IMG/VR virus record: IMGVR_UViG_3300042484_002041
Coordinates: 1 to 64,000 of that record
Direction: 5' to 3' (one strand)
Origin: a virus
DNA length: 64,000 bases
The first letter of the stretch is position 1, and the number at the start of each line of letters is the position of its first letter. The translations under genes and the position numbers were made by a program. Positions 47,141 through 58,153 of this stretch are shown piece by piece. Under the pieces are notes generated by a model, which did not search any database, had not been told where the DNA came from, and worked only from the letters and a program-made list of their open reading frames with translations.

Positions 47141-47968
47141 ATGAAAACTATTGAACTTGAGCATTTTAAAATTGACAGAAAACAGCCGTTAACAGTTATA
47201 GCCGGACCGTGTCAAATTGAAGACTTAACTCATGCTATGGCTATTGCGTTGGAAGTAAAACGCATTTGCGAAGATTTGAATGTTCAGTTCATTTATAAAA
47301 GTAGTTTTGATAAAGCAAATAGATCAAGCATAACTACCAGGCGCGGTGTGGGCATGGAACAAGGGTTGGAGATTTTAAAAACAGTCTCCAACAAATTAGG
47401 TGTTCCTACTATTACCGACATACACGAATCATCACAAGCGGGTATTGTGGCAGAATCAGTTAGTATGCTACAAATCCCCGCATTTTTATGCAGACAAACT
47501 GATTTACTTTTGGCTGCTGGCGCAACTGGCAAGCCCATTAATGTTAAAAAAGGACAATTTTTAGCGCCTTGGGATATGAAAAACGTTGCAGAAAAAATTG
47601 CCTCAACCGGCAATGACAACATAATGTTATGCGAAAGAGGATACAGTCATGGATACAATAATCTTGTGGTTGATATGCGCAGTTTACCTATTATGGCAAG
47701 TACTGGTTATCCCGTTGTCTTTGACTGTACACATAGTGTCCAACAACCCGGAGGACTCGGTGACAAATCTGGGGGAGACAGAAAAATGGTTCCCTTTCTA
47801 TCTAGAGCCGCAGTAGCAACTGGATGCGTGAGTGCAGTGTTTATTGAGACTCATGAGAATCCCGATAAAGCTCCTAGCGATGGACCAAATATGATTCCAT
47901 TACGAGACCTAAGAGTGCTGATAAGTCAGCTAAATTTTATTCATAACAGTGTTAGAAACTTTAACTAA
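47141..47968 (+). CDS. kdsA: KDO 8-phosphate synthase
   Basis: [40 protein letters not shown]. Confidence 0.95.
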
Positions 47969-50040: not shown

Positions 50041-50069
50041 TTGACAAGGAATAAATAAAAGCATATAAT
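50041..50069 (+). promoter_or_regulatory. Consensus sigma70 promoter of the tRNA-array leader
   Basis: TTGACA-17 nt-TATAAT; the spacer also contains TAAATA. Confidence 0.85.
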
Positions 50070-50079
50070 TGACACTGTT

Positions 50080-50205
50080 ATGAAAAACTTCACACTATCA
50101 CTCTTATCCAAGCACGAACAGATGTGCCCCCGCGCCACCACATGGCTAGGTCCGGTATCATATATTCGCGCATTCGAGAATAGTGATACCAGGGGGTCTG
50201 AGTAG
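50080..50205 (+). CDS. Putative attenuator leader peptide, 41 aa, containing all 20 amino acids; not in the ORF track
   Basis: MKNFTLSLLSKHEQMCPRATTWLGPVSYIRAFENSDTRGSE*; 3' end complementary to the terminator 5' arm. Confidence 0.7.
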   Translation: MKNFTLSLLSKHEQMCPRATTWLGPVSYIRAFENSDTRGSE

Positions 50206-50228
50206 ACTGAGTCGTAAGATTCAAATAC

Positions 50229-50265
50229 ACAGACCCTGGCTCGAAAGACCCAGGGTTTGTCTTTT
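50229..50265 (+). terminator. Attenuator terminator hairpin
   Basis: ACAGACCCTGG-CTCGAAAGAC-CCAGGGTTTGT-CTTTT. Confidence 0.75.
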
Positions 50266-50288: not shown

Positions 50289-50317
50289 TTGACAACAAAT
50301 TGAAAACACTGTATAAT
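50289..50317 (+). promoter_or_regulatory. Second consensus sigma70 promoter
   Basis: TTGACA-17-TATAAT. Confidence 0.7.
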
Positions 50318-50650
50318 AAGGCGCTAGGGAATTAAAAATCCTAGCAAAGTGTGATAAGAGGGAACGAGGCCCTCGCTCTGCACTTTAAACAATGGAGCAA
50401 ACGGGCGTGTTAGGGGCATAAAATCTGTGGCGGGAACGCAGAGAGTCAGATCCTAATAGTAAAGTACATTGGTTGTCAGTGTGCTTTACTATACACATTT
50501 TTTGTAAAAAAGAGTGTGTACAGAGAAGCGCGCCATGATCTAATCTGAAGTCCAAACATCTGATGCGGACGGAACCTGTGTGTTGATTATGCTGCACACC
50601 TCGCAGCACGGAGCCAGGATAGCGTGTTTCTCTGTACCTACTTAATTAAA

Positions 50651-50726
50651 GTCTGGTTCGTCTATCGGTTTAGGACGCTGCCCTTTCAAGGCGGAAAGAC
50701 GGGTTCGATTCCCGTACCGGGCACCA
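50651..50726 (+). tRNA. tRNA-Glu(TTC)
   Basis: Cloverleaf, CCA. Confidence 0.9.
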
Positions 50727-50732
50727 AATAAT

Positions 50733-50808
50733 CTCTCCCTAGTTCATGTTGGCAGAACACTGGTCTCCAAAACCAGAGAGCGCGGATCGTCACCGTGGGG
50801 GGAGGCCA
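50733..50808 (+). tRNA. tRNA-Trp(CCA)
   Basis: CTGGT-CTCCAAA-ACCAG; variant T-loop ATCGTCA; CCA. Confidence 0.85.
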
Positions 50809-50825
50809 AACTTTAAGGAACTGAT

Positions 50826-51605
50826 ATGAAAATCGGTATGTTCGGCGATAGTTATATTGCATACCTAAAAAATACTTGGATAGAGCATCTTAACTCTAAA
50901 TCTCAAGACTACAAGATTCAAACTTACGGCAAAGGCGGATCAAACTTATTCTATGCTATAGATCAGTTCAATCAAGCAGTTGATGTAAGAAAGAAAAAAT
51001 ACGATGTTGTTGTTTTTACATTCACATGGCACCAACGATGGTACAGTGCATGGCGGTATAGAAATGAACAATATTGTGCTTTTAGCGAATCAAGAAAATT
51101 TAGTACATATCAGTCTGTTGTCGAGGCGCACGATCCTTCTATTTACAACGACGATACGGATGCCGAATTTATAGCAACTATCCCGAAATTCTACGAATAC
51201 ATGTACGATGATCGGTGGACTAGATTTAATTACGAATTAGAAGTTAAGTATATTTTAGAACTACCGGATCGTTATCCGGATACCAAGTTTATTTTCTTGC
51301 CAAATACAGAATATTCACAAGACCTAGCAAAGAAACATTTCAACAAGGGTGTATTAGTTGATTTTGCATTTGAAACTGTTAGTATCTCGGAACCCGGGGC
51401 GCCAGCCAAGCTCAAGCCCGGGGAGAGAATTAATGTCGAGCGTGACAACCGACTCGGGCATTTAAATCAAAGCAATCATCGTGCAGTCGGTGAACTAATG
51501 TATGACATAATTTCTAACTACCAGGCAGTGGAAAATAAGATTTATCAAGTTGATTTTGATAAATTTGATATGATATTCCCTACCAAGTCTGTTAGCACAA
51601 CATAA
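50826..51605 (+). CDS. SGNH-hydrolase-like protein
   Basis: FGDSY, GGSN, GHL...NH. Confidence 0.6.
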   Translation: MKIGMFGDSYIAYLKNTWIEHLNSKSQDYKIQTYGKGGSNLFYAIDQFNQAVDVRKKKYDVVVFTFTWHQRWYSAWRYRNEQYCAFSESRKFSTYQSVVEAHDPSIYNDDTDAEFIATIPKFYEYMYDDRWTRFNYELEVKYILELPDRYPDTKFIFLPNTEYSQDLAKKHFNKGVLVDFAFETVSISEPGAPAKLKPGERINVERDNRLGHLNQSNHRAVGELMYDIISNYQAVENKIYQVDFDKFDMIFPTKSVSTT

Positions 51606-51611
51606 GTAAAT

Positions 51612-51686
51612 CGCGGGATAGGAAAGCAGTAATCCGCTTGGCTCATAACCAAGAGATCGGCAGTGCGAGTCTGCCTCCCGCAACCA
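51612..51686 (+). tRNA. Initiator-type tRNA-fMet(CAT)
   Basis: CGCGGGA 5' end with C1:A72 mismatch; CAT; CCA. Confidence 0.85.
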
Positions 51687-51691
51687 AGTTT

Positions 51692-52330
51692 ATGAAACCA
51701 TATTTAATAGTGTACCAAGGCGGAACCTGCGGCAATTTAATGGCAGGCTTAATTCATACGCTACAAACAAATACCGCAGTCGAAGTACGGCAAGATGGAT
51801 CACTACACGAACAGAGGCATGGACCGGTGCACGTATACTATCCGTGGAAAATTCTAATAGAAAATGATCTAAATAAAAATTATAACACTGCACTAACAAA
51901 TATTTTTATTACGCACGATAGAAATATTAGAGACTTTGCATCTAGTAACGATTTAACAGTTATTAAAATCGTATACACAGACGACTCGAAGAAGTTAATT
52001 CGTCAGTTAGTATCAGAAAAAGCACAATTAACTAACCTAAAACAATGGTATCTATCACTTCCGGCCTTGCCGTTCAAGGACGTTGATTTAGATAACATCA
52101 ATGATGATACTAGAGTAGTCAAGTACCTTTATCGATGCTTAGATGATCGTATAGATAACTTTATGGACGCAGTAACATATTATCATCATACTGTTAATTT
52201 TGAAGATATTTGGACAGACAATGAAAATTTACTCAACCAATTGAGTAACATAACTGGATTAAAAAGTAACGAAAAAACAGTGCAATTAATTCAAAATTAT
52301 GTTACTATCAATAATAGATTGTATAAATGA
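51692..52330 (+). CDS. Hypothetical protein (sulfotransferase-like N-terminus)
   Basis: YQGGTCGN...ITH...FEDI. Confidence 0.5.
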   Translation: MKPYLIVYQGGTCGNLMAGLIHTLQTNTAVEVRQDGSLHEQRHGPVHVYYPWKILIENDLNKNYNTALTNIFITHDRNIRDFASSNDLTVIKIVYTDDSKKLIRQLVSEKAQLTNLKQWYLSLPALPFKDVDLDNINDDTRVVKYLYRCLDDRIDNFMDAVTYYHHTVNFEDIWTDNENLLNQLSNITGLKSNEKTVQLIQNYVTINNRLYK

Positions 52331-52367
52331 GTAGCATATCAGCTACCAGATTTTTAAGTAGCACAAT

Positions 52368-52443
52368 TCCGGTCAAGCAAACACGGTGTAGGCAGAGGAC
52401 TGTTAATCCTTGAAGCCTGGTTCGATTCCAGGGACCGGAGCCA
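52368..52443 (+). tRNA. tRNA-Asn(GTT)
   Basis: Cloverleaf, CCA. Confidence 0.9.
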
Positions 52444-52451
52444 CACATACT

Positions 52452-52528
52452 GCACAGATACCAAAGAGGCCTAATGGCATGGATTGCAAATCCGTTGTTC
52501 GTGAGTTCGAATCTCACTCTGTGCTCCA
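52452..52528 (+). tRNA. tRNA-Cys(GCA)
   Basis: Cloverleaf, U73, CCA. Confidence 0.9.
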
Positions 52529-52541
52529 AACTCGACACAAC

Positions 52542-52635
52542 GGAAGCGTGGCAGAGCCCGGTTTAATGCACCTGACTTGAAATCAGACGAATGTAGCGAT
52601 ATGTTCCGTGAGTTCGAATCTCACCGCTTCTACCA
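52542..52635 (+). tRNA. tRNA-Ser(TGA)
   Basis: Long variable arm, CCA. Confidence 0.9.
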
Positions 52636-52742
52636 GTTACTGGTTGACAATTAAATCCAAGTACGCTATACTAGAGTCATGTTGTCGGTAACTCAGCAAC
52701 AGCTCTTTAAAAACACAAGCAAGCGTTTGTAAAGATACAATC

Positions 52743-52827
52743 GCCCGGGTGATGAAATGGTATACATAGAAGACTTAAAATCTTCCGCCGTAATGGCATG
52801 CGGGTTCGAGTCCCGCCCCGGGCACCA
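52743..52827 (+). tRNA. tRNA-Leu(TAA)
   Basis: Long variable arm, CCA. Confidence 0.9.
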
Positions 52828-52836
52828 AACATATAC

Positions 52837-52912
52837 AGGGGTTTCGCCAAGTTGGTAAGGCATCGGATTTTGATTCCGACATGCGGTGGTTCGAATCCAT
52901 CAACCCCTACCA
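52837..52912 (+). tRNA. tRNA-Gln(TTG)
   Basis: Cloverleaf, CCA. Confidence 0.9.
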
Positions 52913-52920
52913 AAATTTAG

Positions 52921-52994
52921 GTCTCAAAGTGTTCATGGACGCATACATGCCTGTCACGCATGAGGAAGGGGATCGTTACCCCTTGGGACCGCCA
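52921..52994 (+). tRNA. tRNA-Asp(GTC)
   Basis: Cloverleaf, variant T-loop ATCGTTA, CCA. Confidence 0.85.
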
Positions 52995-53034
52995 ATTTTT
53001 CATTGGTGCTGTTAGTGATATAGATACCTTAGGT

Positions 53035-53106
53035 GTGACTGTAGTGTAGTGGTCTGCACATTGCTCTGTGAAAGCGATAGTATGGGATCGTTCCCCATCA
53101 GTCACC
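53035..53106 (+). tRNA. tRNA-His(GTG)
   Basis: GTGACTG/CAGTCAC, C73; followed by CCT, not CCA; T at position -1. Confidence 0.8.
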
Positions 53107-53160
53107 CCTAAGTTATTTGCGATATGGGATTTTCCCCACTTCACCCCAACATTGTTTTAT

Positions 53161-53234
53161 ACCCGGTTAGCTCAAAGGTAGAGCAATGGCTTGATAAGCC
53201 ATAGACAGAGGATCGTTACCTTTACTGGGTACCA
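53161..53234 (+). tRNA. tRNA-Ile(GAT)
   Basis: Cloverleaf, variant T-loop, CCA. Confidence 0.85.
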
Positions 53235-53242
53235 ATATACAT

Positions 53243-53318
53243 GCTGCTTTAGCTGATGTGGTCATAGCGGAGGTTTGAAGAACCTTGGAACGTGGTTCGA
53301 TTCCACGAGGCAGCACCA
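53243..53318 (+). tRNA. tRNA-Phe(GAA)
   Basis: Cloverleaf, CCA. Confidence 0.9.
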
Positions 53319-53320
53319 GA

Positions 53321-54049
53321 TTATGGAGTTAGGTCTATCAAAGTTAACACCGAGCTGGCTAAATCTAAATTAGATTTAACTCCATGATGAGATAGGTCTC
53401 GAGCACGATCTAATCCTTTTAATGTGTTTAATTTTACTGGAACAAATTTGCACTCATTCAGTTTACTTACTTGTGCAAGTGCAAGCGTGTTCTTTTCAGA
53501 ATTTAACTGACTGTTAGTATCGACTGATAACCATGTTTTGTAAAACCCTGAATAATAACCAGGAGGAGACACAGGGGTTAAAAATTCTACATACTGTTCC
53601 CCGACTAGTTCAACCCTATGCATGTCAGGCAGTAACAATACTACTATCTTTGGTAAGATTTTAGGAATCCAATACGAGCCTAATCTGTATGCAGTATCGG
53701 TACTGCCGCCGCCCTGCCCAAGATTGTAACATTTTAAATTTAGATTGTCGGCAACAATTGTCGGCCAAGTGTGTTCGATAGGTAGGCCAACCCCAACAGT
53801 GTGACTGCAACCCAGAAATAAAATGCTAGGGTCGTTTGTAAACTCTTCGCACCTGAATGCAAAACTATTAAATTTGTAAGTTATTTCTTGGTTGATCCAT
53901 CCGTTGAGTTCCATCTCCGGACGTCTCAACTTTAAGTTTTCAAGATATCGATCTTCTGTATCCTGCGGTAGCCATTTTACAGTTCTGTTGGCTAATGACC
54001 CAGCGTTATTAAAGTTGTTGATGTAGCATGAATCGTAATTTATTTTCAT
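53321..54049 (-). CDS. SGNH-hydrolase-like protein inserted antisense in the tRNA array
   Basis: LGCSHTVG, NLGQGGGS, D.SHHG; TAAATA just upstream on the - strand. Confidence 0.7.
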   Translation of the reverse strand: MKINYDSCYINNFNNAGSLANRTVKWLPQDTEDRYLENLKLRRPEMELNGWINQEITYKFNSFAFRCEEFTNDPSILFLGCSHTVGVGLPIEHTWPTIVADNLNLKCYNLGQGGGSTDTAYRLGSYWIPKILPKIVVLLLPDMHRVELVGEQYVEFLTPVSPPGYYSGFYKTWLSVDTNSQLNSEKNTLALAQVSKLNECKFVPVKLNTLKGLDRARDLSHHGVKSNLDLASSVLTLIDLTP

Positions 54050-54073
54050 TGAAATATTTATTAGTGTAAGAAT

Positions 54074-54157
54074 GCGGACGTGATGTAATTGGTAGCCATG
54101 CGAGTCTTAGAAGCTCGTGCCTTGTGCGTGAGAGTTCGAGTCTCTCCGTCCGCACCA
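54074..54157 (+). tRNA. tRNA-Leu(TAG)
   Basis: Long variable arm, CCA. Confidence 0.9.
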
Positions 54158-54179
54158 TGAGATATATAGTAGTATAAAG

Positions 54180-54254
54180 GCCTGGTTAGCTCAGGGGTAG
54201 AGCGTCTCCTTTACACGGAGAGGGTCCGCGGTTCGAAACCGTGACCAGGTACCA
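54180..54254 (+). tRNA. tRNA-Val(TAC)
   Basis: Cloverleaf, CCA. Confidence 0.9.
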
Positions 54255-54260
54255 AAGTTT

Positions 54261-54337
54261 GGTCGGGTATCTTAAGAGGAAGTAGAGCCTCCCTCATAAG
54301 GAGGAATGTGGAGCTTCGAGTGCTCTCCTGACCACCA
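54261..54337 (+). tRNA. tRNA-Met(CAT), elongator-type
   Basis: CCTCC-CTCATAA-GGAGG, CCA. Confidence 0.8.
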
Positions 54338-54351
54338 AGATAGTTTTATAT

Positions 54352-54425
54352 GGGCGTGTAGTATAATGGGATTACGACGGCTTTGCAAGCCGTTTATGGG
54401 AGTTCGATCCTCCCCATGTCCACCA
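54352..54425 (+). tRNA. tRNA-Ala(TGC)
   Basis: G3:U70, CCA. Confidence 0.9.
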
Positions 54426-54438
54426 TAGTTTTACAAAA

Positions 54439-54528
54439 GGAGAGCGGGCCGGACGGTAAGGCAACTGACTGCTAATCAGTAGAGTGTAGTAATATGCTCA
54501 CAGGGTTCGATTCCCTGGCTCTCCGCCA
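54439..54528 (+). tRNA. tRNA-Ser(GCT)
   Basis: Long variable arm, CCA. Confidence 0.9.
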
Positions 54529-54536
54529 AGTTTTTT

Positions 54537-54611
54537 CGGTCTTTAGTTCAATGGATAGAATACGTGGCTTCGAACCATGTGATGGGAGTTCGATCCTCTC
54601 AGGACCGGCCA
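54537..54611 (+). tRNA. tRNA-Arg(TCG)
   Basis: Cloverleaf, CCA. Confidence 0.9.
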
Positions 54612-54641
54612 AGAGTTTTATACTACACAATAGGAAATAGT

Positions 54642-55112
54642 ATGTTAAAGGTAGATGTTCGAGAGGTTGAAGAATTCATGAGCCAGCAAGGCCCTAATAC
54701 TCGAGTCTACTTGGGTGCCGACAGCGAGCGATTCAAGGTCAACGGTGTTTGGTGGGCCGAATACACAGTAGCTGTGGTTATCCACATCAACGGTCGCAAT
54801 GGTTGCAAGATCTTTGGAGAAACTTCCAAGGAACGCGACTACGATCAAAAGTACAATCGTCCCAGCATGCGGCTCATGAACGAGGTGTACCGTGTCAGCG
54901 AAATGTTCCAGCGGCTGCAAGAGATACTGAAAGATCGAGAGGTCGAGGTGCACTTGGATATTAATCCTAGCGAAATGCACGGATCCAGCTGTGTGGTGCA
55001 GCAAGCAATTGGGTACATACGCGGCACTTGCAACGTGATCCCCATGGTCAAGCCAGATGCGTTTGCAGCCAGTTATGCGGCGGATAGGCTAAAGAGCTTG
55101 CTGGCTGCTTAA
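54642..55112 (+). CDS. RNase H-like YkuK family protein
   Basis: YLGADS, RLMNEV, EVHLDIN, KPDAFAASYAAD. Confidence 0.85.
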   Translation: MLKVDVREVEEFMSQQGPNTRVYLGADSERFKVNGVWWAEYTVAVVIHINGRNGCKIFGETSKERDYDQKYNRPSMRLMNEVYRVSEMFQRLQEILKDREVEVHLDINPSEMHGSSCVVQQAIGYIRGTCNVIPMVKPDAFAASYAADRLKSLLAA

Positions 55113-55120
55113 ATAGTATC

Positions 55121-55849
55121 ATGCAACTTTGGGTATTTTTTGAGCCTGGCACCGGAGGTGATGGATTGTGTAACCTCCTGGAACAGTCAACAGACTGCAA
55201 TAGCCTAGGCGCAATAAAACAATGGCGTCCGCATCGTTATGTTGATGGTGATTTAAAATTTTGGATGCCAACTCCGGATGTAAAACATTGTTTTCGAAGT
55301 TCTGCTCCTTTTAAACAACACAAAAATCAGTTTCATAACAATTATGTTAACTTGGCTAATCAAGATCAAGGATTTGTAATTATACCATCTCACGGTATCA
55401 ACTTGCGGGCGTTAGAAACAAGCGACTGCCAGGATATATTGACTGCTAATCAAAAAAAAGTTTTGCTATTAAGTAAAGATCGAAAGGCTGCTTTACTTCG
55501 AGCAGAACGAAGTTGTTTACGCGAAATAAAGCCAGCAACGCCAGAATATCTTGACTGTCAGATAAAACAAAAAATTAATATTGATAAATTTGACTCGGTC
55601 GTCTACATTGAGGATTTACGATCGAATTTTGACATCTTTGACAACTTTTGTAACACATTAGGAATTGTTGCAGATAAAAATCACTATGACACCTACCTGC
55701 AACTAATCCGAAGAGAACTTTTTTTTGTATCACCAGGTATAGCATATCACAGTTCTAGAATTGACAAAAACGGAATTCTTCGGTATGATCAAGTTGATCC
55801 AGATATGGTAATAGGTCAAAGAAAAAAATTATTGTTTGACTTGATGTAG
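55121..55849 (+). CDS. Hypothetical protein (sulfotransferase-like N-terminus)
   Basis: FEPGTGGD...PSH...YIEDL. Confidence 0.5.
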   Translation: MQLWVFFEPGTGGDGLCNLLEQSTDCNSLGAIKQWRPHRYVDGDLKFWMPTPDVKHCFRSSAPFKQHKNQFHNNYVNLANQDQGFVIIPSHGINLRALETSDCQDILTANQKKVLLLSKDRKAALLRAERSCLREIKPATPEYLDCQIKQKINIDKFDSVVYIEDLRSNFDIFDNFCNTLGIVADKNHYDTYLQLIRRELFFVSPGIAYHSSRIDKNGILRYDQVDPDMVIGQRKKLLFDLM

Positions 55850-55890
55850 TTGACATCTAATAACAGTTGTGTTATAATACATGAATGTAT

Positions 55891-55964
55891 GCGGGATTGG
55901 CATATTGGTTGTGTCCTAGCCTTCCAAGCTAGTCAAAGGAGTTCGATTCTCCTATCCCGCTCCA
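55891..55964 (+). tRNA. tRNA-Gly(TCC)
   Basis: Cloverleaf, CCA. Confidence 0.9.
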
Positions 55965-55990
55965 TAAATATAAATTAACCGAGGTCTTTG

Positions 55991-56236
55991 ATGAATGTAA
56001 CCCTTAGTCGTGGTACCGGTATTAACACTGAAAAATGCGTGGAAAATGCCGGGGGGAATCGATACAATTTGGTGTTGATTGCTTGCCACCGTGCTCGTGA
56101 CATTGAACGTCATAACATCCAGCGCCAGAAGCAAGCCTACGAAAACCCAATTGTGAGTGCCTTGTTGGACGTGCAAAACGGTACAGTCGGCGAAGAGTAT
56201 CTCAAGCGAATTAAGACGCCTAACAGGCGGGTATGA
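55991..56236 (+). CDS. RNA polymerase omega subunit-like protein
   Basis: EKCVE..GNRYNLVLIA.HRAR.I...P.V.AL.DV..G matches the RpoZ pattern. Confidence 0.75.
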   Translation: MNVTLSRGTGINTEKCVENAGGNRYNLVLIACHRARDIERHNIQRQKQAYENPIVSALLDVQNGTVGEEYLKRIKTPNRRV

Positions 56237-56242
56237 TGTAAT

Positions 56243-56316
56243 GCGGGTATGATGTAATGGTAACCTGAAACCTTGCCAAGGTTTATTCGCGAGTTCGATT
56301 CTCGCTACCCGCTCCA
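56243..56316 (+). tRNA. tRNA-Gly(GCC)
   Basis: Cloverleaf, CCA. Confidence 0.9.
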
Positions 56317-56321
56317 GGATT

Positions 56322-56396
56322 CTGCCCATCGTTCAACGGACAGGACATGGTTCTTCTAAATCCAGAATGGGGGTTCGATTCCCTCTGGGCAGACCA
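56322..56396 (+). tRNA. tRNA-Arg(TCT)
   Basis: Cloverleaf, CCA. Confidence 0.85.
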
Positions 56397-56974: not shown

Positions 56975-56997
56975 AGCGCGGTTAATCCGCGCTTTTT
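56975..56997 (+). terminator. Intrinsic terminator
   Basis: AGCGCGG-TTAAT-CCGCGCT-TTTT. Confidence 0.8.
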
Positions 56998-57221
56998 CAT
57001 GGTAGGCACGGTTGACAATTAATTCAACTTGCCGTATAATGCTTGTATGCGTTAAGAGATTAACGCGCTCTTTAACAAGTCGATGAAAAACATGACTGTG
57101 AGGTCATATTGAAGCTCTGGTGTAAATGGGCACATCCCCCAAGTACTAGTCTTGGAAAAACGGGGAGAGAACACGCGGCTCCAAAAGCAGATGCGAGTGA
57201 GTTTCAATATGATCTTACATT

Positions 57222-57295
57222 GGGTTTGTAACTTAAAAGTAAAGTATCGGACTTTTAATCCGACTAAGAAGGAGCGTTACCTTCCAGACCTACCA
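57222..57295 (+). tRNA. tRNA-Lys(TTT), divergent D and T loops
   Basis: TCGGA-CTTTTAA-TCCGA; T-loop AGCGTTA; CCA. Confidence 0.75.
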
Positions 57296-57531
57296 TATAG
57301 AAATGCATTAGATCCCTTGTATGCTGCTGAACAGGCGCCCCGATCAGCGGCATATATCCCTTTTAGTGTGTTTCTATATGGTATGTGAGGGTGGTATGTA
57401 GGTTGGTAACCATTCCAGCGAGGACCGGGATTCCCAAGCCAGCAACACTGGCTACCATATAGAAACACATTATCATCATAACTGGTTGATAAAAGAGACT
57501 TGACCCTCTGTTAGTGTGTTTCTATATGGTA
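57291..57531 (+). repeat. Two long hairpins with near-identical terminal arms and different inserts
   Basis: TACCATATAGAAAYRCATTA ... TAGTGTGTTTCTATATGGTA at 57291-57383 and 57453-57531. Confidence 0.85.
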
Positions 57532-57621
57532 AGTATTTTAGGGAGTAATGCAGATGTCCTGCATTACTTAAACGACCAAGCTGAGCCGGTGTCCCTTAGT
57601 TAAATTAATGGAAAGTATAAT

Positions 57622-57706
57622 GGACAGGTGGGTGAGTGGTTAAAACCAGGAGACTGTAAATCTCCCGCCTCTGGCTACGTAGGTTCGAATCCTACCCTGT
57701 CCACCA
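57622..57706 (+). tRNA. tRNA-Tyr(GTA)
   Basis: Long variable arm, CCA. Confidence 0.9.
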
Positions 57707-57712
57707 AGATTT

Positions 57713-57787
57713 GGGCTGATAGTGATAATGGGAGCACAGGGCGTTTGCAACGCTTTAGTCGGGGTTCGATCCCCCGTCGGTCCACCA
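57713..57787 (+). tRNA. tRNA-Ala(TGC), second copy
   Basis: G3:U70, CCA. Confidence 0.9.
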
Positions 57788-57896
57788 AAATTTTGCGGTC
57801 GCGCCGCAGACGACTCAATACTTGGTCGTAACATCATGTATCTATTAGGTGAAAAGCCTATCCTTATTTGCCTCCATAGTTCAATGGATAGAACAG

Positions 57897-57972
57897 GCCC
57901 CGGTAGCTCAGTGAATAGAGTACATTCCTCCTAAGAATGAGGTCGGGCGTTTGATTCGCCCCCGGGGCACCA
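57897..57972 (+). tRNA. tRNA-Arg(CCT)
   Basis: CATTC-CTCCTAA-GAATG, CCA. Confidence 0.85.
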
Positions 57973-57996
57973 TAACTCAAGTAAATAAACATCTAA

Positions 57997-58071
57997 GCCC
58001 CTTTAGCATAGTGGTACTGCAATCGCCTTGTAAGCGATAGAGCGTCTGTTCGATTCAGACAAGGGGCACCA
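57997..58071 (+). tRNA. tRNA-Thr(TGT)
   Basis: Cloverleaf, CCA. Confidence 0.9.
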
Positions 58072-58077
58072 CATTAT

Positions 58078-58153
58078 CTCCGTAAAGTGTTATCTGGTGG
58101 CATGCTGCGTTTGGGACGCAGTGGTGAAGGTTCAAATCCTTCTATGGAGACCA
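58078..58153 (+). tRNA. tRNA-Pro(TGG)
   Basis: CTGCG-TTTGGGA-CGCAG, CCA. Confidence 0.85.

Follow-up and report, generated by a model that had tools for sequence, protein, structure and literature searches.

In the trpL, hisL and leuL leaders, and in the multivalent thrL and ilv leaders, the position of the ribosome chooses between an antiterminator and a terminator; the trp leader terminates when it is untranslated. T-box riboswitches also report tRNA status through a terminator/antiterminator choice, by binding one uncharged tRNA directly and without a translated ORF. An attenuation mechanism of the same leader-peptide kind has been described for pheL (PMC3082878). In Escherichia coli, the toiL uORF of topAI-yjhQ senses general translation stress via stalls at different positions (PMC12121999), and leaderless polycysteine short ORFs of mycobacteria are ribosome-stalling attenuators (10.1101/834739). 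The trn operon of Anabaena, a 26-gene tRNA array under TrcR, is induced by translational stress (PMC8421152, PMC10272220). Attenuation is known for amino-acid genes, and no published case was found for tRNA genes; nor was a leader attenuator for phage tRNA genes found in the literature searched, which left most subscription journals uncovered. Why phages carry tRNA arrays has itself long been unresolved; codon bias, decay of host tRNAs and counter-defence are the candidate reasons.

The locus examined here belongs to a large lake phage with DNA polymerase and baseplate genes. Coordinates are those of the window, the whole 64-kb stretch of DNA that was analysed, and this makes up the opening 64 kb of a virus record that is 167.6 kb long and 48% complete. 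Contigs from three runs of lake metagenome sequencing, belonging to three studies, contain the leader stretch without a single difference, so it is not an assembly error; no RNA run was among those listed as containing it. A search with the major-capsid profile PF07068 gave no match and was uninformative. The genome is rich in sugar-modifying and radical-SAM-like genes. In the absence of expression data, we put at roughly 0.85 the probability that the stretch is a transcription attenuator, coupled to the ribosome, through which overall decoding speed sets the output of the phage tRNA operon. Its elements are as follows.

50041–50069, + strand: P1, a sigma70 consensus promoter (-35 at 50041–46, -10 at 50064–69)
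50050–50057, + strand: AATAAATA, a T4-type late-promoter-like motif in the P1 spacer
50080–50205, + strand: leader ORF of 41 codons, in which 19 amino acids have occurred by codon 29 and the twentieth, Asp, occurs at codon 36
50151–50194, + strand: hairpin within the ORF, -17.4 kcal/mol
50189–50204, + strand: antiterminator 5′ strand (core GGGTCTG at 50194–50200; codons 37–41 and stop), pairing with 50226–50239
50208–50223, + strand: small spacer hairpin that brings both antiterminator strands together
50227–50265, + strand: intrinsic terminator (hairpin 50227–50259, -20.5 kcal/mol; U-tract 50256–50265)
50289–50317, + strand: P2, a second sigma70 consensus promoter (12/12) without a late motif, bypassing the attenuator
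50651–56396, + strand: first block of 21 tRNA genes, from Glu to Arg-TCT, with protein genes interspersed
56975–58153, + strand: separate last block, tRNAs Lys, Tyr, Ala, Arg, Thr and Pro

The first-pass annotation had read P1 as a perfect TTGACA-17-TATAAT promoter, and it matched at 12/12 positions. The 41-codon ORF, with 20 amino acids by codon 36, was likewise confirmed, as were the proposed complementarity of 50189–50204 to 50226–50239 and the hairpin and U-tract of the terminator ending at 50265 after the ORF. The second consensus promoter at 50289–50317 is real and could, as had been cautioned, bypass the attenuator. The 27 tRNA genes claimed downstream, for all 20 amino acids, were accounted for by 26 ARAGORN predictions 3′ of the leader and a tRNA-Lys(TTT) at 57222 identified by Rfam.

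By itself, the leader ORF was only moderately unusual, and suggestive at most. All 20 amino acids within 41 codons had p = 0.022 against windows of the phage's own proteins and p = 0.008 against random codons; this was the chance calculation that had been proposed for random 41-codon ORFs. By codon 36, the corresponding values were p = 0.008 and 0.002. The count of 33 different codons was right, though such diversity is as expected for the peptide (p = 0.34–0.48), and the run without repeats, given as 11 residues, is actually 14 residues at its longest and not significant (p = 0.09); both were dropped as evidence. The peptide had no Pfam or PHROG match, and the leader RNA no Rfam match at gathering threshold or at E ≤ 10, T-box included. 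None of 200 shuffles folded as well as the 198-nt leader (z = -5.5). Comparative evidence from a family of leaders is decisive where the single ORF is not.

Leaders were gathered blind to composition in two ways, via neighbouring proteins and via the terminator DNA pattern alone; this collection replaced a candidate list pre-filtered on diversity, which was rejected as circular. We obtained 79 distinct leader/terminator units heading phage tRNA arrays, in 38 clusters at 40% identity. Average linkage was used because single linkage chained. A stand-alone ORF of 20–70 codons ended 21–43 nt upstream of 60/63 tRNA-heading terminators, and of only 5/97 terminators of the same pattern away from tRNA genes. 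Among 32 non-redundant arrays fetched via neighbouring proteins, the unit was present in 21, with leaders of 18–20 amino-acid types, and no convincing unit was seen in the other 11 environmental arrays. Upstream regions of relatives' tRNA arrays, a comparison that the first-pass annotation had suggested, showed a conserved short ORF with broad amino-acid coverage and low peptide identity (median pairwise 21%, versus 17% for shuffles). A pN/pS of 0.56 over 16 pairs places the peptide sequence under weak constraint; a nucleotide indel count inside the ORFs was noisy and was left out. The unit is retained in four close relatives, which differ by a few substitutions and still have 20 amino-acid types; in all five close genomes the leader, the antiterminator and the full amino-acid complement have survived the substitutions. 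Two family leaders lie on short contigs binned to Polynucleobacter (L424) and Haliscomenobacter (L368) genomes. Their phage-like gene content indicates that these are probably mis-binned phage DNA, and the Polynucleobacter binning is only a hint as to host.

Amino-acid coverage of the long leaders exceeded chance expectation whether the null was built from proteins or from nucleotides. The 24 clusters with leaders of at least 34 codons averaged 18.7 amino-acid types (16.6–16.8 expected), and 9 of them contained all 20 (0.58 expected; 0/200,000 simulations). The clusters are not fully independent of one another, but the excess is wide. Amino-acid counts were flatter than chance, with low variance. 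Trp was present in 92% of these clusters, nearly always once, where 52% was expected, and Cys in 83%, where 51% was expected. Ser made up 13% of residues in long leaders, twice the background, and the codon GCT was nearly absent (2/55 Ala codons).

Composition also followed the tRNAs behind the leader. For 15 clusters with partial leaders, the three tRNAs that follow call for 37 amino acids, of which only 1 was missing from the leader, versus 11.9 on permutation (0/20,000 as good, p < 5 × 10−5). A Ser/Leu/Cys/Tyr leader (L199) precedes tRNAs Leu, Cys, Leu, Leu, Ser, Ser, Ser and Tyr; a Ser-rich leader (L333) precedes Arg, Ser and Ser; and the L190 leader precedes Glu, Pro, Cys, Phe, Thr, Arg and Gln. 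With a complete array behind it, the window's all-20 leader represents the extreme of this trend. It includes Lys, Tyr, Thr and Pro, although their last-block tRNAs escape direct control. Leader codons compared with array anticodons gave z from -2.6 to +2.8, the sign being set by the null model. In some phages the task is shared out: each of several tRNA blocks has a leader to itself (L139, with two units; L232/L344 versus L307/L315/L339), and the amino-acid sets of these leaders are partly complementary.

The end of the ORF is matched to its own terminator. Duplexes of ORF ends with their own terminator 5′ arms had a mean energy of -16.7 kcal/mol, compared with -11.6 kcal/mol for arms of other members (0/100,000 permutations matched the own pairing) and -5.7 kcal/mol at control terminators. 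In a 22-sequence alignment, the antiterminator showed 35 two-sided changes, versus 13.9 in shuffles, and all slid registers scored much lower. The shuffle test is inflated by relatedness, a fault from which the slide control is free. Covarying antiterminator/terminator pairs, which it had been proposed to seek in relatives, were thus found. The terminator hairpin was 99% paired across 22 family members, and its 5′ arm (50230–50239) is common to the antiterminator. The U-tract is broken up in the window's clade (TTTGTCTTTT).

Folding was modelled for the RNA at the moment when the terminator 5′ arm has just emerged, with the ribosome treated as a mask. Antiterminator and terminator, the two states whose folding had been called for, were mutually exclusive in the model. 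The predicted probability of antiterminator pairing was 0.86–0.97 with a ribosome on codons 1–35 or with none (0.97 without a ribosome; family mean 0.77), 0.44 at codon 36 and at most 0.11 from codon 37. The family profile had the same shape, descending from approximately 0.8 to 0.3–0.4 within 7 codons of the stop. The modelled edge between read-through and termination shifts by one codon with the assumed ribosome footprint. The polarity agreed with that first proposed, in which completion of the leader leads to termination and a stall to read-through. The idea that a stall at any codon would suffice was borne out in the model for codons 1–35; it was in doubt for Asp, found only at codon 36, which is borderline because the ribosome there already half covers the antiterminator. 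Asp and Glu often debut in a leader's last 5–9 codons, at or past the modelled limit. The hairpin at 50151–50194 engages no more than the initial bases of the antiterminator strand and leaves its core free, so that a delay anywhere upstream can be read out; we infer that it is possibly a pause hairpin. Full-length RNA at equilibrium favours the terminator by 11 kcal/mol, and read-through would therefore need kinetic trapping.

These elements suggest the following mechanism. RNA polymerase would start at P1, and a ribosome, whose loading is inferred, would enter at the near-leaderless ATG. With prompt decoding, the ribosome would reach codons 37–41 as the terminator 5′ arm emerges, covering the antiterminator, and transcription would terminate. 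With a lag in codons 1–35, or with no ribosome, the antiterminator is modelled to form first, and polymerase would read into the tRNA genes. Since the leader samples every amino acid, a shortage of almost any charged tRNA would slow transit; the switch would behave as a timed race, not a stall at one codon run. New phage tRNAs would speed the ribosome, closing the loop. The attenuator logic put forward in the first-pass annotation gains support from the fixed-spacing ORF, the amino-acid coverage, the match of composition to tRNAs and the covarying antiterminator, without data on translation or read-through.

From the inferred start site, the P1 transcript would begin approximately 4 nt before the ATG, a leaderless message with no Shine–Dalgarno sequence. 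Among family members whose promoter matches at 10/12 positions or better, all 52 have the -10 box 6–10 nt before the ATG. The AATAAATA motif, which resembles the T4 late promoter TATAAATA, also occurs upstream of baseplate wedge, hub and virion genes in the same genome. TAAATA was found in 12/20 leader promoters versus 21/225 other promoters (p = 3 × 10−7), and the leader of Xanthomonas phage X1 has the late motif alone upstream. In this contig, which is 48% complete, we identified no late sigma factor. Ahead of the first tRNA block, the P1 motif was the sole late promoter found. P2, 24 nt past the terminator, has been kept by no relatives beyond the four closest, and in the window's clade it could reduce the switch to a minor role; across the family, 4/35 clusters have a strong promoter in the interval from the terminator to the first tRNA and 31/35 have none. 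Within the first block there are a late motif at 55963 and internal sigma70 promoters at 52644, 55761 and 55850, which like P2 sidestep the switch whenever they are active; no strong terminator was found before the one at 56975. Early in infection, P2 and the internal sigma70 promoters would, by inference, give unregulated transcription, and the switch is probably the sole gate of the first block only late in infection. It would most likely matter then, as host tRNAs decay. Decay of host tRNAs has been described in infection by T4 and a T4-like vibriophage (PMC9697503), which fits a late-acting switch.

The last six tRNAs are separated from the others by a terminator (56975–56999), a promoter (57012–57040) and an exact boxA (57067–57078), so the switch gates at most 21 tRNAs. 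The earlier proposal that it controls the replacement tRNA set can stand for the first 21 at most, and not for the six behind their own terminator and promoter. The boxA is of the rRNA-operon type (GYTCTTTAANA), and exact copies also lie 5′ of tRNA blocks in L082, L265, L076, L260, L297 and L104 (near 7005). It was found before tRNA blocks in 4/35 clusters (0.01 expected), an enrichment that suggests Nus-factor antitermination of phage tRNA operons.

Other features of the array were observed. Behind P2, 50321–50518 (+) contains five consecutive hairpins (region z = -5.0; a distant look-alike occurs in L129), and within it 50456–50492 is a near-perfect inverted repeat of 16–17 bp whose loop region looks inverted in L004. 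Directly 5′ of tRNA-Glu, a structured RNA candidate of approximately 120 nt (50518–50638, +) has a long closing stem and two inner hairpins, with compensatory changes in the closing stem in L004 and L008; it matched no Rfam family. The array holds an RNase H-like gene (PF04308, 54564–55112, +), a gene type found within or adjoining tRNA arrays of many unrelated phages, an RNA polymerase omega-like gene (PF01192, slightly under cut-off; 55988–56236, +) and, on the opposite strand, a 242-aa gene (53321–54049, -) with its own late motif near 54062. Such inserts differ freely between close relatives. Upstream of the array lies a DAHP synthetase I family gene (47141–47968, +), KdsA-like by sequence appearance.

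Similar units were found in cultured phages. Xanthomonas phage X1 has a 39-codon leader with 19 amino-acid types before 37 tRNAs. Inside the tRNA arrays of Vibrio phages KVP40, nt-1, phi-ST2 and D480 is an ORF of 37–38 codons with 18–19 types and the same hairpins, and Vibrio phage 1.081.O has a diverged version, also with the same hairpins and inside the array; all five Vibrio-phage ORFs are unannotated. The units in KVP40, nt-1 and X1 are regarded as candidates. Another candidate, an internal attenuator with a 28-codon leader, lies in a 31-tRNA array (L395:1–4600) on a 594-kb Acidobacteriota contig; the array adjoins genes that by eye resemble a HipA-type toxin–antitoxin pair. No convincing unit was seen in the tRNA regions fetched from T5, GAP32 (in part), Aeromonas phage 31.2, Enterobacter phage KKP_3262, RP13, DLP6, RcXuper or BUCT-ZZ01. 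These absences are not proof, as the filter was strict and missed the window's own unit in a genome-wide run.

The same attenuator might have evolved specifically against host defence, sensing anticodon nucleases or tRNA-targeting toxins and switching on replacement tRNAs only in defended hosts. This remains tentative, and we doubt it: sequence cannot separate defence cleavage from phage-driven tRNA decay or starvation, and the nucleases hit single isoacceptors, yet there is no clear codon-level match and every codon is present only once or twice in the leader. A specific link of the trigger to host defence nucleases was not shown; the trigger is most likely a general loss of decoding capacity, of which such nucleases are one possible cause. 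It is also conceivable, though unlikely, that the family is functional and the switch largely redundant in this phage, with P2 and internal promoters supplying the tRNAs. P2 is a 12/12 match conserved in four close relatives, the U-tract is interrupted and the array has four more sigma70 promoters; against this, the leader, antiterminator and 20 amino acids have stayed intact in five close genomes despite substitutions, and the late motif is in P1, not P2.

Two readings do without a decoding switch. The product of the ORF could be a small peptide with a function of its own, or one that arrests translation in response to a metabolite or drug; the terminator behind it would then be constitutive and the tRNAs made from downstream promoters. 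A pN/pS below 1, the repeated appearance of some residues inside clusters (Trp and a late Glu-Asn-Ser-Asp stretch) and the presence of P2 in the window's clade are compatible with a peptide function. We nevertheless find it very improbable, because peptide identity is scarcely above that of shuffles (21% versus 17%), composition tracks the downstream tRNAs, the covarying antiterminator would have no role, in 31/35 clusters no strong promoter separates the terminator from the first tRNA, and Pfam and PHROG gave no match. That the ORF is incidental to a structured non-coding RNA or a protein-controlled terminator can scarcely be credited: an ORF at fixed distance in 60/63 cases, coverage beyond both protein and nucleotide nulls and the lack of an Rfam match weigh against it, despite the strong folding (z = -5.5) and the many small RNAs annotated in phage tRNA regions such as that of T5.

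For the attenuator as a class, we consider it likely that leader attenuators whose codons spell the tRNAs behind them regulate the tRNA genes of many large phages and of at least one bacterial-contig array, and that the all-20 form is a decoding-speed sensor rebuilding the tRNA pool on demand as phage or host defence destroys host tRNAs. If so, the condition that opens the switch would be the condition that phage tRNAs serve, and the question of why they are carried would become one of measurement. It would mean attenuation acting on tRNA genes themselves, with one leader integrating all amino acids, and would offer a compact reporter of translation health. The candidate units in cultured nt-1, KVP40 and X1 make the idea testable.

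Compared with the known systems, T-box riboswitch features (Stem I specifier loop, T-box antiterminator bulge) gave no Rfam match in the phage leader, at gathering threshold or E ≤ 10. toiL differs in acting by translational repression and Rho-dependent termination in response to antibiotics, in controlling a toxin–antitoxin operon and in not sampling amino acids (PMC12121999). The mycobacterial polycysteine ORFs report one amino acid and control downstream translation via ribosome-binding-site access (10.1101/834739), while the Anabaena trn operon relies on a repressor at promoter direct repeats, with no attenuation or leader mentioned (PMC8421152, PMC10272220). The terminator pattern also retrieved a classical Leu-rich attenuator before leuA in a planctomycete (L414, - strand, 700–2650), with a tRNA-Leu gene directly 3′ of leuA on the same strand. 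Like the attenuators of amino-acid operons, the phage unit has a short ORF directly behind a promoter and upstream of the controlled genes, an intrinsic terminator soon after the stop codon, and an antiterminator that, from covariation and mask folding, is exclusive with the terminator and covered by a ribosome near the stop; its leader also matches the product of the controlled genes, at the amino-acid level. Unlike them, it is located in phages, has an inferred leaderless start and, in the model, lacks protector-hairpin termination, so that read-through is the predicted default of the untranslated RNA. Its target is tRNA genes rather than biosynthesis or synthetase genes, and its leader is spread over all 20 amino acids, whereas theirs are enriched in one to three.
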